The position numbers and the translations under genes were made by a program. 59,375 nt of DNA from Candidatus Gottesmanbacteria bacterium (GTDB lineage: Bacteria > Patescibacteriota > Microgenomatia > UBA10105). Shown here in pieces: positions 18,057-22,237 of the stretch (its first letter is position 1; each line of letters starts with the position of its first letter). Location of the stretch: assembly GCA_023245415.1 (NCBI GenBank), contig JAHFKJ010000006.1, positions 1 to 59,375 on the forward strand, written 5' to 3'. The notes beneath the pieces were generated by a model. The model was given only the letters and a program-made list of their open reading frames with translations, had not been told where the DNA came from and did not search any database.

Positions 18057-18458
18057 ATGATTATGGATCAACAAGACGCTCGTGTAATAAATAAACCTAA
18101 AATTTTATTAGTCGAAGATAATGAGACTTTTCGCAAAGTAGTTAAGAGAACAATGGAGTTGTCAGGATTTGATATTTTTGAAGCTGAAAATGGGCTCAGA
18201 GGTTTAGAAATCGCCCGGGTAAATAAACCAGACCTGATTCTGGTTGATATATATATGCCGGTGATGGACGGGATGTCGATGCTTTCCGAACTTAAAAAAG
18301 ATGAAATCCTCATGAAGATTCCAGTCGTTATGGTGACCAACGTTCAGGAGGAACTTGACAATGCAGTCAAGGCTGGTGCTGAAGAAGCAATTCTTAAATC
18401 TTCACTTACCCCTTCACAAATGGTGGACGTGTGTAAGAAGTATTTGGATTTAAATTAG
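18057..18458 (+). CDS. stand-alone CheY-like response regulator receiver
   Basis: ILLVEDN, PDLILVDIYMPVMDG and IPVVMVT. Confidence 0.92.
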   Translation: MIMDQQDARVINKPKILLVEDNETFRKVVKRTMELSGFDIFEAENGLRGLEIARVNKPDLILVDIYMPVMDGMSMLSELKKDEILMKIPVVMVTNVQEELDNAVKAGAEEAILKSSLTPSQMVDVCKKYLDLN

Positions 18459-20842
18459 TCTTCACTTCTTGTTGGCCAGGAAGCGGTGATTAATAAATTT
18501 TTCGATTCAATCGGCATTAAGTGCCAAATTTCTTCAGTCACAAACGGCATGAAAGGATGGAGGAGTTTCAGAATCGTGAAATAAATATAGCGCATGACGC
18601 TTAATGTTTTTGCTGTTTCTTCATGTTTTTTCTCCAATTCGTAAGTTCTAATTCGCAATTTTAAATTCTCAAGATACCAATCGGCATATGTATGCCAGGT
18701 GAATTCATACAGCGAACTTGTAGCTTCACCAAAGTTGTAATTATCCAGGGCTTTCGTTACCCGATTGATCTGCATAGTTAGTTGTGAAAGTATGCGTCTG
18801 TCTTGAGGGTGTAAAGTTTTTCGCGCTGCTACTAAATCTTCGTAAAAAGGAATATCCACTGGACTGCCATCTGTGAACTGCATACTTACAAATCTGCCAA
18901 TGTTCCAGAGTTTATTGGAGAAATTGCGATAACCCCGGATGCGTTCTTCCATTTGCTGTTTGGAAATCAACAAATCATTTCCGCTGTCGCGTCCGGCAAG
19001 CAGGGCCATACGCACAGCATCGGCGCCATATTTGGCAATAGCTTCGTTGGGATTAATACCGTTACTTTTGGATTTGCTCATTTTTTGGCCTTTTTCGTCC
19101 CGGAGTACGCCATTTATCAAGGCAACCTGAAAAGGAACCTCATCAGTCAGATACAAGCCGAACATGATCATCCGCGCTACCCATAAAAATAAAATTTCAT
19201 ACGCCGTATTCATAACTGTAGTAGGGTAAAAGTGTTTAAAGTCATTGGTATCTGAGTTTTTTAGCGTATTTACCGGCCATTGTCCTGACGAAAACCAGGT
19301 GTCAAAAGTATCCGGATCCTGAATATATTCATCATCTCCAGCTGGCATATCCTGTGAAACTATTGGAGATTCCAGTACGTCGGTGCGCGACCGCGTGTCG
19401 CCTTTTTTCAATAATTCAAATTCGTGAATCTGTTCAGTCGTCTTTTGTGATGAACGTCCGTACCATACAGGGAGTTGCTGTCCCCACCAGATTTGTCGGG
19501 AAATTGGCCAATCCCGGATATTTTTCATCCAGTTAAAATACATTGCTTCGTATTTCTTAGGAATTATTTTAACCTTGCCGGTTTCAACTGCGGTGGTAGC
19601 ACGTTTTGCTAAAGGCTTAATACTCACGAACCATTGACGCGACACCAGAGGTTCAATTGTAGTGGCACAGCGTTCACAGACAGCCACTTCGTGTTTGAAG
19701 GGGACAATTTTTTCCAGCAAATTATTTTTGGATAAGTATTCGGAAATTAACTGCCGGGCAACTTTAGTTTTTAGTCCTGCCCACTGTCCTGCGTCGCTGG
19801 TAAGCTTTCCATCAAAGTCAATTCCGTTTTTAATCGGGATATTATGTTTTATGGCTACCTGATAGTCCTTGCTGTCATGGGCCGGTGTCAGTTTTACAAC
19901 ACCTGTGCCAAATTTGGGATCTACAAATTCGTCGCCGATGATTTTCATGTCTTTTCCGGTTAAAGGGTTTTTGACATTTTTTCCGATTAAGTGAAGGTTT
20001 TTTTTGTCCGTCGGGTTTACTGCCAGATGTGTATCCAGCCAGATCGGTTCCACCCGAGTCGTGGCAACAATTACATATCCTTCTTCCCATGTTTTGGGGT
20101 ATCTTACAAAATAAAGTTGGTCTTCCTGTTCTTTCCATTCCAGTTCCAGATCAGCTAAAGTGCTCCTACAACGGGGACACCAGTTAACGATGCGAAATCC
20201 GCGATAGACTAATCCTTCACGGTGCATTTTGATAAATGTTTCCAATACCAACTGGGAAATTTGCGGATCCATGGTAAACTTTTCGCGCTGCCAGTCACAG
20301 CTGGCACCCAAAGCTCGGAGTTGATTTTCCATGAGCATTTTGTTATCCATGCAAAACTTATAGCATTGCTTAACAAATTCTTCACGGCCCAGGTCGTAGC
20401 GCGATTTATCCTGTTCCTTCCTGAGTTTTTTTTCAAAAGTAACTTGGGTGAGAATTCCGGCGTGATCTACGCCTGGCAGCCATAAGGTGGGTTCGCCTCG
20501 CATTCGGTGATAGCGGATCAAGGCGTCGGAAACGGCGACAAATATCGCGTGCCCCAGGTGGAGTTCGCCATTGGCATTGGGCGGGGGCATAATAATAGAG
20601 AAAGGTTTACCTTGTTTATCCGCCTCTGGTGGAAGCGAGCCGAAGGGTTTACCGTGAGCGGAGCCGAAGGGTTTACCGTGAGCGGAGCCGAAGGGTTTAC
20701 CGTGAGCGGAGCCGAAGGGTTTACCGTGAGCGGAGCCGAAGGGTTTACCGTGAGCGGAGCCGAAGGGTTTAAATGCTCCTGCCTCTTCCCACATTTTATA
20801 TATGCGGTCTTCAGTAGTTTTGTGGTCGTATGTTTTATCCAT
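18455..20842 (-). CDS. valS: valyl-tRNA synthetase
   Basis: PPPNANGELHLGHA (HIGH), GTGVVKLTPAHD, DWPISRQIWWG, DTWFSS and KMSKS. Confidence 0.97.
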   Translation of the reverse strand: MDKTYDHKTTEDRIYKMWEEAGAFKPFGSAHGKPFGSAHGKPFGSAHGKPFGSAHGKPFGSAHGKPFGSLPPEADKQGKPFSIIMPPPNANGELHLGHAIFVAVSDALIRYHRMRGEPTLWLPGVDHAGILTQVTFEKKLRKEQDKSRYDLGREEFVKQCYKFCMDNKMLMENQLRALGASCDWQREKFTMDPQISQLVLETFIKMHREGLVYRGFRIVNWCPRCRSTLADLELEWKEQEDQLYFVRYPKTWEEGYVIVATTRVEPIWLDTHLAVNPTDKKNLHLIGKNVKNPLTGKDMKIIGDEFVDPKFGTGVVKLTPAHDSKDYQVAIKHNIPIKNGIDFDGKLTSDAGQWAGLKTKVARQLISEYLSKNNLLEKIVPFKHEVAVCERCATTIEPLVSRQWFVSIKPLAKRATTAVETGKVKIIPKKYEAMYFNWMKNIRDWPISRQIWWGQQLPVWYGRSSQKTTEQIHEFELLKKGDTRSRTDVLESPIVSQDMPAGDDEYIQDPDTFDTWFSSGQWPVNTLKNSDTNDFKHFYPTTVMNTAYEILFLWVARMIMFGLYLTDEVPFQVALINGVLRDEKGQKMSKSKSNGINPNEAIAKYGADAVRMALLAGRDSGNDLLISKQQMEERIRGYRNFSNKLWNIGRFVSMQFTDGSPVDIPFYEDLVAARKTLHPQDRRILSQLTMQINRVTKALDNYNFGEATSSLYEFTWHTYADWYLENLKLRIRTYELEKKHEETAKTLSVMRYIYFTILKLLHPFMPFVTEEIWHLMPIESKNLLITASWPTRSED
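20601..20770 (-). repeat. in-frame tandem array of 24-nt REP-like units in the valS 5' end
   Basis: CGAAGGGTTTACCGTGAGCGGAGC x5 exact (20641-20760), plus a sixth unit interrupted by TCCGCCTCTGGTGGA; encodes (KPFGSAHG)5-KPFGSLPPEADKQGK. Confidence 0.95.
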
Positions 20843-21090
20843 AAAAAAACCGTCCTGCCTTAAAAAGCTAAAGGACGGAAAGTTTTACCTTTTTCCGTGG
20901 TACCACCTTCATTTAGCGTTTAGGAATTAGAAATTAGAATTTAGAAATTAAACAAATTTCTTTACGCTAAGTTCTAAGCGCTCTCATTTACAGTTTTTAC
21001 GGGCTTACCCGGTCTGCCTTACTAATTAAATAAAATGTTCTGACAAACAGCTCCCTGGTGACTGGCCAAGTAATAACGCTTTTATTTACT
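20843..21090 (-). ncRNA. T-box riboswitch (valS leader) with ultrashort Stem I and Val specifier
   Basis: Antiterminator AAGG-UGGUACC-ACGGAAA...UUUCCGU-CCUU. Stem I CUUGG-CCA-GUC-A-CCAGG-GAGC. Stem II with AGAAC/AGUAA S-turn and IIA hairpin CGGG-UAAG-CCCG. Competing hairpin CCGUCCU/AGGACGG followed by U7. Confidence 0.92.
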
Positions 21091-21096
21091 TAAGTT

Positions 21097-21124
21097 ATTA
21101 TAGCTTCTTTCAGAAAGATGTCAA
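21097..21124 (-). promoter_or_regulatory. sigma70-type promoter of the valS T-box leader
   Basis: TTGACA-16 nt-TATAAT on the minus strand. Confidence 0.85.
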
Positions 21125-21135
21125 AAAAACTAAAG

Positions 21136-21558
21136 TTATACCTTCAATTTATATCTTTTGACGTAAGTTCCACCTGTTTTGAGAGATACGGTGACCGTAA
21201 GCGAAGCATTTTTAATATTGTAGTGCGGTGTACAGACGCCTTTACTGCAGGTACCAAAATAAAGATCCCGGCTGTCGGTTGAAGAGCTTGGAGTAATTGA
21301 ACCGACTGCACCCTGTTCAATTCCACTGGCAGAATAACTTAGCGTATAAGACACTTTTGCAACTTTATCAAGATTTGATAAAGTAAGGATGATACTATTG
21401 GTATTGCGGGAGAGTTTGGCAGATGAATAAGCGACACCTTTGCCTGCAGTTGAAGTTGACCGCACGCGGATTTTGGCAGCTTGAATGGGGGCAGGTGTAA
21501 GATGAACAAGTAATATTAATAATAAGCAGATAAGAATTGCGCTGCGCAGAAACTTCAT
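21136..21558 (-). CDS. hypothetical secreted protein
   Basis: Signal-peptide-like MKFLRSAILICLLLILL...IQA; FGTCSKGVC motif. Confidence 0.7.
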   Translation of the reverse strand: MKFLRSAILICLLLILLVHLTPAPIQAAKIRVRSTSTAGKGVAYSSAKLSRNTNSIILTLSNLDKVAKVSYTLSYSASGIEQGAVGSITPSSSTDSRDLYFGTCSKGVCTPHYNIKNASLTVTVSLKTGGTYVKRYKLKV

Positions 21559-21598
21559 AAAATGAATTATAGCAAATCTCATGCTATACTTCCTTATT

Positions 21599-22237
21599 AT
21601 GCAAAAGAAACCGATAATAGCTGTTTTCATTGCTATTTTAGTCATTTTAATAGGAACTGGAGTGTGGGTATGGAAAAGGAAATTTCAAACCTCTGCGATT
21701 CCTTCTTCTTTACAGGAAACATCTGTAAAAGCTTCTCCAAATATTTCCCAGAATTTCGTCACTTGGAAAGACCAGTTAAATTTCAGCTTTGATTATCCCC
21801 AAGATGCTAAAATCGATAAACATGATGAGGACCAGGATAATTATGCGCATGTAGAATTGACACAAAAAGATCACCCGGGAAGTTTGATTGTCTGGGCCAA
21901 AGATCCGCCCAAAAGTAAAACCGGAAAAATTGTAACTTCAGCAATGGAATGGATTGACGCACAAGACGATCTTAAAGACGCATTGGTAATTGATACGACG
22001 TGGGGTGAGCAAAAAGCGAAAAAAGTCAAAGTGACGAGTCTCAAGTCAAAGTTCTATGTAGTTGCATATTATGACGGACTAATTTACTACATCGAAACAG
22101 ATTTGAAAGATAGCGATTATTGGAGCGCAGTTTCTGAAAAAGTAGTAAGTAGTTTTGCTTTTACGCCAAAAGCTGCGTCAGCAGATGAAGGTGGGGGAGA
22201 AACTCAAGCAGTAGATGAGGAAGAAGTGGTGGAGTGA
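21599..22237 (+). CDS. hypothetical membrane-anchored protein (PsbP-like)
   Basis: N-terminal TM; FSFDYP near the start and VVSSFAF near the end; acidic tail. Confidence 0.6.
   Translation: MQKKPIIAVFIAILVILIGTGVWVWKRKFQTSAIPSSLQETSVKASPNISQNFVTWKDQLNFSFDYPQDAKIDKHDEDQDNYAHVELTQKDHPGSLIVWAKDPPKSKTGKIVTSAMEWIDAQDDLKDALVIDTTWGEQKAKKVKVTSLKSKFYVVAYYDGLIYYIETDLKDSDYWSAVSEKVVSSFAFTPKAASADEGGGETQAVDEEEVVE

Follow-up and report, generated by a model that had tools for sequence, protein, structure and literature searches.

T-box leaders, of which that of Bacillus tyrS is an example of the canonical transcriptional kind, are a model for RNA recognising RNA. The subject here is the leader of valS, the valine-tRNA ligase gene, in a 59,375-nucleotide (nt) stretch of contig JAHFKJ010000006.1 (the window); coordinates are positions of that window, its genome is labelled G000, and the leader and valS both lie on the minus strand. 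An earlier note on this DNA had read the leader, from the letters alone, as a T-box riboswitch with an ultrashort Stem I, an independent version reprogrammed for valine in a genome resembling those of the candidate phyla radiation (CPR). The leader is a T-box, as is confirmed by its sequence features, its model scores, covariation, the match of codon to gene, the match of bulge to transfer RNA (tRNA) discriminator and a pair of mutually exclusive folds.

In the portions of PMC7583486 and of TBDB that deal with it, the ultrashort Stem I is described as a special case that is actinobacterial, specific to ileS and translational, and the TBDB class II model is there applied only to Actinobacteria and to class I matches with a truncated Stem I. 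A literature search found no paper linking T-boxes with the CPR, Patescibacteria, Parcubacteria or Saccharibacteria, an earlier mention being possible with the TBDB supplements lying outside the search. When set beside the ileS T-boxes of Nocardia farcinica and Mycobacterium tuberculosis (TBDB class II), the valS leader has in common with them, going by the relevant sections of PMC10651847 and PMC7583486, a short Stem I at the kink-turn (K-turn) position with an apical specifier followed by a purine, a Stem II with an S-turn, Stem IIA/B (of which the IIB partner is uncertain in the G000 copy) and the want of a distal platform binding the tRNA elbow. In both, the strand competing with the antiterminator contains Shine-Dalgarno bases. 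The two differ in that there the specifier is AUC, the gene ileS and the host an actinobacterium, whereas here they are GUC, valS and a CPR bacterium, and in that a terminator-free sequestrator there corresponds to a hairpin followed by seven U (U7) here. A further difference, compared by description, is that the actinobacterial elements serve Ile only, whereas Val, Ile, Gly, Asp/Asn, Arg, Ser, Pro and His are all represented in the CPR order considered below.

With the canonical transcriptional T-box (Rfam family RF00230) the leader shares the T-box sequence with a UGGN bulge, the alternation of antiterminator and terminator with its U-run, Stems II, IIA and III, the regulation of an aminoacyl-tRNA synthetase gene and a specifier ending in C, which is the 'C-rule' as worded in part of TBDB. 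It differs in scoring under the family cut-off and in having a U-run that abuts the start codon; and since 4 nt stand in for 72 model positions of distal Stem I in the RF00230 alignment, the leader has no platform and its specifier occupies an end loop where the canonical one occupies an internal loop.

The valS leader and its relatives

When the minus-strand sequence from 20500 to 21400 was inspected, all the features listed in the earlier note (promoter, Stem I, Stem II with S-turn, IIA, antiterminator, hairpin with U7) were found where it had placed them. The RF00230 model, applied at an E-value threshold, aligned over its full length (1-219) to 20868-21083 (-) with 53.2 bits and E 7.2e-11. 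A second covariance model, R1, was built from the valS leaders of 12 relatives, with the window sequence and that of genome G045 excluded. It found a single site in the 59,375-base window, at 20840-21087 (-), with 58.7 bits, E 1e-14 and model positions 1-164 of 164 covered, and this site was also its top match across the G000 genome. T-box identity was upheld by both models, and the RF00230 alignment and the R1 match likewise bear out an ultrashort Stem I with the Val codon GUC in its end loop. The elements of the leader and its gene, in the order of transcription, are these:

21097..21124, minus strand: sigma-70-type promoter, TTGACA 21124-21119, 16-nt spacer, TATAAT 21102-21097; 12/12 matches
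21049..21080, minus strand: ultrashort Stem I, made up of base helix, internal loop, upper helix and 7-nt end loop
AGC 21080-21078 with GCU 21051-21049, minus strand: Stem I base helix, from sequence
At the K-turn position, minus strand: Stem I internal loop GUUAUUA/GA, from sequence
CUUGG 21070-21066 with CCAGG 21058-21054, minus strand: Stem I upper helix, from sequence
21065-21059, minus strand: Stem I end loop CCAGUCA, 7 nt, from sequence
GUC 21062-21060 and A 21059, minus strand: specifier and following purine, complementary to the anticodon of tRNA-Val(GAC)
21012..21048, minus strand: Stem II, GUUUGUC/GGCAGAC, with S-turn motifs AGAAC and AGUAA; GAAC/AGUAA align with the Rfam consensus
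21000..21011, minus strand: Stem IIA hairpin CGGG-UAAG-CCCG, from the Rfam alignment and the valS leader alignment
20912..20999, minus strand: variable linker or Stem III region, A+U-rich, about 75 nt longer than in relatives and a 79-nt insertion against model R1
20869..20911, minus strand: T-box sequence and antiterminator, with helix A1 UGAAGG/CCUUUA, bulge UGGUACC 20905-20899 and helix A2 ACGGAAA/UUUCCGU
20878-20850 (hairpin) and 20849-20843 (U7), minus strand: terminator-like hairpin CCGUCCU-(UUA)-GCUU-UUUA-AGGC-AGGACGG with U7, from folding and sequence
18455..20842, minus strand: valS, with its AUG at 20842 directly after the U7 run

The T-box sequence reads AAGGUGGUACCACGG and holds the UGGU bulge, whose bases are complementary to the ACCA end of tRNA-Val. 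The G000 genome encodes tRNA-Val(GAC), whose gene the earlier note had wished to see confirmed, at G000:C24:360-434 (-), together with CAC and TAC isoacceptors; the discriminator is A73 in all three genes, in keeping with the fit between bulge and discriminator claimed in the earlier note. A predicted fold of -10.4 kcal/mol was obtained for the antiterminator and one of -14.6 kcal/mol for the 54-nt stretch containing the competing hairpin. The 5' arm of that hairpin is the 3' half of the antiterminator, CCGUCCU being common to both, and the two folds are mutually exclusive. Its 3' arm contains the Shine-Dalgarno-like bases AAGG (20861-20858) and AGGA (20856-20853), 10-15 nt before the AUG, and no others occur in the leader; the platform of hairpin and U7 abutting the AUG was thus found as described, with these motifs inside it. 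The 3' end of the 16S ribosomal RNA carries CCUCCU, a normal anti-Shine-Dalgarno sequence.

The promoter is the sole promoter-like site in 20700-21300, where a shuffled region averages 1.0 such sites. An open reading frame (ORF) upstream stops at 21136 and the promoter occupies most of the 55 nt that precede Stem I. A TATAAT or TATACT hexamer stands just 5' of Stem I in 13 of the 14 valS leaders described below. Transcription from a start far upstream, with a full-length Stem I, the case that the earlier note had named as contrary to its reading, is therefore unlikely.

valS was detected in 60 of 61 genomes of the same order. Upstream regions of valS, 50 in all (30 loci and 20 further regions), were examined by an exact search for the bulge motif, and a T-box was present in 14; a valS T-box in G001, cut by the edge of the region, is excluded from these. 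The end loop reads CCAGUCA in 11 of the leaders and CCAGUCC, AUUAGUCAC and CCAACCA in one each, the last being that of G045, so that all except G045 (13/14) have GUC in the loop. When a structure of 21 pairs was laid on the alignment of the 14 leaders, 92.9% of cells were paired, as against 29-40.5% when the partners were slid, and the covariation score was 0.487 as against 0.06-0.08. Upper Stem I has two-sided changes at all 6 of its pairs, with 97.6% of cells paired, and Stem II has them at all 6 of its pairs; the Stem IIA helix is invariant in 14/14, and the IIB pseudoknot has two-sided changes at 2 of 3 pairs. The end loop is thus kept while the stem beneath it varies by compensatory pairs. 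On four of five measures the observed value was matched by none of 500 shuffles, and on the fifth ('further pair types') by 133 of the 500. RNAalifold, unaided, predicts Stem I, Stem II and Stem IIA.

The leaders of the relatives also show where the G000 copy has its own form. The 5' side of its K-turn is UA, whereas in relatives it is GA and GA/GA flanks the upper stem. The loop of IIA in relatives contains a GC that pairs with a GC 5 nt downstream, forming the IIB pseudoknot, and in the G000 leader this partner is not at its usual place, being either displaced or lost. The distal part of Stem II is longer than in most relatives. The extra A+U-rich bases, about 75 nt, may be either a Stem III, as the Rfam alignment has it, or a looped-out insert; a 7-nt repeat (TTAGAAA on the plus strand, 4.4 copies, 87% matches) lies at 20920-20950 within this enlarged region.

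Two of the other valS leaders have peculiarities of their own. In that of G045 (L089:139-341 (-)) the base of Stem I encloses two hairpins, with loops CCAACCA, which has no Val codon, and GUGGUUA, in which GUU is followed by A, and the leader may carry a duplicated Stem I with a moved specifier. In that of G004 (L050:1224-1395 (+)), the closest to the G000 leader, the bulge is UGGC and the discriminator of the genome's own tRNA-Val(GAC) (L179:1520-1596 (-)) is A73, a mismatch in the sensing pair.

The short Stem I before other genes

RF00230 matches at E up to 0.01 were found in 38 of 41 genomes of the order and exceeded the cut-off in only 3. The catalogue of order leaders came to 107 (78 further matches and 29 earlier ones), 78 of them no longer than 230 nt and 29 longer, and the genes downstream were named by clustering followed by an NCBIfam scan of representatives. 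The commonest were ileS (23), argH (16), a gene for a CsaA-like tRNA-binding protein (12), aspS (7) and glyQS (4), followed by a PspA-like gene, proB and argG (2 each) and serB, serS, hisG and proS (1 each). By reading, the loop of the short Stem I shows AUC before ileS, GGC before glyQS, CAC before hisG, CGA (once CGC) before argH and argG, GAC (AAC in two genomes) before aspS, UCC before serS, serB and the PspA-like gene, and CCC, CCU or CCG before proB and proS.

The earlier note had proposed that the specifier be compared with the identity of the downstream gene, and the two do go together: a parser blind to gene labels found the cognate codon in the loop of 57 of 74 leaders, whereas in 10,000 trials with shuffled labels the average was 21.2 and the highest count 33, a contrast that does not amount to a true probability since the genomes are related. 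Parser errors were counted as misses (for example in the valS leaders L079 and L090 and in three of the four glyQS leaders), and among its 'matches' a few (argG, L090) arose from codons that happen to lie in the wrong hairpins. Two previous Stem I parsers had been dropped in favour of this stricter, label-blind one because they picked unrelated hairpins. The fourth base of the bulge also follows the amino acid, being UGGU in 13 of 14 Val and all 23 Ile leaders, UGGA in 3 of 4 Gly leaders, UGGC in 13 of 16 argH leaders and UGGG in the single His leader; the discriminators encoded in G000 (Val A, Ile A, Gly U, Arg(tcg) G, His C) match it.

That the resemblance to a T-box is due to chance, or that the specifier is something other than GUC and the leader responds to another tRNA or to no tRNA, is very improbable in view of these data. 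Such an explanation could appeal to an Rfam score under the gathering cut-off, to a short hairpin with no energetic signal and to the CCAACCA loop of the G045 valS leader, but it has to contend with two independent covariance models (E 7e-11 and E 1e-14), with a loop that is conserved while its stem covaries and with a codon-gene match far above that of shuffled labels.

Judged by these loops and genes, the short Stem I predominates among the T-boxes of the order and serves at least eight amino-acid classes, namely Val, Ile, Gly, Asp/Asn, Arg, Ser, Pro and His. Beyond the order, in a phylum sample of 151 genomes, 49 had an RF00230 match at E up to 1e-4, and 67 of the 85 matches tallied outside G000 were no longer than 230 nt, one partial-model match having been omitted from the tally. 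The claim of an independent, reprogrammed Val version consequently proves too narrow: the Val specifier does accompany valS, but the element is not an isolated one, given the other classes in the order and the common short matches in the phylum sample. The minimal decoding module, recurring with all these codons, is on this showing general rather than an ileS special case.

Several of these leaders have features worth recording individually. The glyQS T-box of G000 (126 nt, G000:C5:116229-116354 (+), which is L003:1501-1626; RF00230 28.1 bits) has an ultrashort Stem I with loop AUGGCA containing GGC, is without a Stem II, and has a bulge, UGGA, that fits U73 of tRNA-Gly. The ileS T-box of G000 (G000:C10:23361-23583 (-), which is L004; 25.8 bits) shows AUC in a small hairpin, CCAU-AAUCA-AUGG, which unlike that of most ileS leaders of the order has no K-turn-like flanks. 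The argH leaders (L105-L171; 16) and argG leaders (L155 and L173; 2) have CGA in a 5-nt end loop and a UGGC bulge before genes of arginine synthesis. Two aspS leaders, L130 (G040) and L138 (G004), have AAC (Asn) rather than GAC in the end loop, which suggests control of aspartyl-tRNA synthetase by tRNA-Asn in those two genomes and would fit a non-discriminating enzyme. The twelve short T-boxes before the CsaA-like gene (L104, L111, L112, L118, L121, L134, L139-L141, L150, L151 and L160) have CCG (Pro) in the loop where Stem I is readable, as does the proS leader L174, and have a small hairpin with loop CNAAUAA or CNAAGAA in place of Stem II.

Probable antitermination, possible translational control and the state of the G000 copy

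The leader is a T-box riboswitch that probably senses tRNA-Val and controls valS by antitermination; the tRNA binding, the termination at U7, the masking of the ribosome-binding site and the start site are what we infer from the sequence. Transcription would begin near 21090, some 7 nt beyond the consensus -10 box, and the first 90 nt or so would fold into a decoding module made up of a short Stem I whose end loop displays GUC-A, of Stem II and its S-turn and of the Stem IIA hairpin, which would be the same module as in the actinobacterial ileS T-boxes, without the platform at the distal end of Stem I that holds the tRNA elbow. GUC would be read by the anticodon of tRNA-Val(GAC), and if that tRNA were uncharged, its ACCA end would pair with UGGU in the bulge, the antiterminator would be stabilised and RNA polymerase would continue into valS; if it were charged, the more stable hairpin at 20878-20850 would form ahead of U7 and transcription would end just before the AUG. 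Any full-length messenger RNA (mRNA) that refolded would probably also be closed to ribosomes, because all Shine-Dalgarno-like bases are in the 3' arm of the hairpin, with the U-run as the spacer before the AUG, which would give a second, translational layer. Antitermination is thus the probable main switch, with masking of the ribosome site by the same hairpin acting on refolded mRNA, and the layout suggests control of both transcription and translation, the 'hybrid class' of the earlier note.

A number of observations weigh against this reading. Of the 50 valS regions, 36 yielded no element in the bulge-motif search, and direct reading of L035, the nearest named relative, shows a short intergenic region without a T-box. 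The counts given above are inflated as independent support, since related genomes are kin. The 53.2 bits of the G000 leader fall short of the RF00230 gathering score of 93, so that the standard T-box model finds the element over its full length and yet leaves it under the cut-off; this shortfall is put down to the deletion of distal Stem I. Folding energies were no better than those of shuffled sequences (z-scores of -0.52 for the whole leader and -0.12 for the Stem I hairpin), for which reason support was drawn from covariance models and covariation rather than from energy. A simple terminator scan of 20700-21300 returned no sites, the hairpin going uncalled because its stem has a 3-nt bulge. 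The G000 copy departs from its relatives three times, in the UA of the K-turn, in the misplaced IIB partner and in the roughly 75 A+U-rich nt before the T-box sequence. Finally, transcriptional T-boxes are said, in the part of PMC7583486 concerned with Stem I, generally to need a long Stem I platform for fast capture of the tRNA, and the CPR leaders therefore either break this rule or act mainly on translation. Two scans were also negative: the Rfam scan of the whole window at gathering thresholds gave no matches, and no T-box of the RF00230 type was found upstream of the nearest named valS loci (L035, L038 and L047) at E up to 1.

The last of the objections leads to the question of which process is controlled. 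The leader might be purely translational after the manner of the actinobacterial ileS T-boxes, the hairpin being a Shine-Dalgarno sequestrator only and U7 a U-rich spacer or a ribosome standby site. The ultrashort Stem I has so far been tied to translational control, as far as the pertinent part of PMC7583486 goes, AGGA and AAGG do lie in the 3' arm with the U-run against the AUG, and the 3-nt bulge that hid the hairpin from the terminator scan is also in keeping with this. Nor is the layout confined to G000. The U-run abuts the AUG in 10 of the 14 valS leaders including that of G000, and, among the 67 other short leaders in which a start codon was called, ends within 2 nt of it in 25, of which 22 have a Shine-Dalgarno-like motif just upstream. 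Even so, a purely translational switch is considered unlikely. A hairpin of -8 kcal/mol or lower followed by at least five U is present in 62 of the 76 other short leaders of the order bearing the T-box bulge motif, a G+C-rich stem being directly followed by 5-8 U. Moreover, in the remaining 4 valS leaders the U-run is 16 nt upstream of the AUG, and there a hairpin with U7, whose aligned 3' arms end in GGUACC and carry no motif of the AAGG, AGGA or GGAG type, has a plain terminator layout.

The departures of the G000 copy raise a different doubt, that the leader is a decaying or inactive one which resembles a T-box and no longer switches. The altered K-turn, the shifted partner of the pseudoknot and the A+U-rich insertion of 75 nt, with its 7-nt repeats, are real when compared with 12-13 relatives; the element is patchy, the motif search having found none before valS in G003, G002 and G005 of the same family nor in L035; and the closest leader, that of G004, has a UGGC bulge despite A73 in its tRNA-Val. 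On the other hand the promoter is perfect at 12/12, and no damage is seen in the end loop CCAGUCA, in the bulge of the T-box sequence, in either helix of the antiterminator or in the terminator. The UA variant of the K-turn is also present in the valS leader of G015 and conserved in all four Ser-class leaders (from four genomes), and is therefore apparently tolerated, whilst insertions in Stem III are common in T-boxes according to the portion of PMC7583486 that treats them. Decay is accordingly thought slightly less likely again than a purely translational switch.

The occurrence of the module ahead of terminator-shaped hairpins offers a direct test of the need for an elbow-binding platform. 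It is tentatively suggested, with rather more doubt than is attached to the valS leader, that the CPR/Patescibacteria may possess a lineage-wide family of miniature T-boxes in which a decoding module free of the elbow platform, used for eight or more amino-acid classes, is coupled with true intrinsic terminators. Were that so, the sensing of tRNA during transcription would not require a long Stem I, against the kinetic argument now current, and the hairpin placed next to the start codon, its 3' arm holding the Shine-Dalgarno bases, would on its own govern both transcription and translation. With a model dedicated to short T-boxes the amino-acid regulons of CPR bacteria, about whose physiology little is known, would come to light, and such small modular tRNA sensors are possible parts for engineering.

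Host genome, neighbouring sequence and long T-boxes

The G000 genome is 1.55 Mb in size and 96% complete. The valS gene (ORF 18455-20842 (-)) codes for 795 amino acids (aa) and scores 858.7 bits against a cut-off of 704 with NCBIfam PRK05729. Its closest named counterpart, at 64% identity, is from Candidatus Gottesmanbacteria (Microgenomates/Patescibacteria group), which agrees with the CPR-like character attributed to the genome. The stretch is present in four DNA sequencing runs, all from one groundwater study, and there is no RNA run among the sequencing runs listed as containing it. The upstream ORF, of 169 aa (21136-21645 (-)), belongs to no family in NCBIfam or Pfam.

T-boxes with a long Stem I are found in the same genomes as the short ones, with the same T-box sequence and with terminators, and the two designs therefore coexist. 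They differ from the short ones in having a full-length Stem I, the 29 of the 107 catalogued order matches that exceed 230 nt representing this group, and in preceding genes for methyltransferase-like or unnamed proteins rather than aminoacyl-tRNA synthetase genes; Pfam and NCBIfam scans of the unnamed proteins downstream of T-boxes gave nothing firm. Standard annotation misses the short elements, because only 3 of the 41 order genomes exceed the Rfam cut-off and the top three matches are, by their length (290-321 nt), of the long-Stem-I kind. In G000 itself a long-Stem-I T-box (G000:C21:6737-7069 (-), which is L001; 75.1 bits), the specifier of which was read as UAC (Tyr), lies upstream of the gene for a 424-aa protein with no NCBIfam match and a weak Pfam match to prephenate dehydratase (E 0.0044).

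Within valS, a perfect 24-nt tandem repeat (5.6 copies, 100% matches; window 20637-20771 (-)) is situated in the N-terminus ahead of the HIGH motif and codes for repeated GKPFGSAH. This N-terminal insert looks specific to G000, because the matches of relatives' valS begin only at query residue 64-79 or later.

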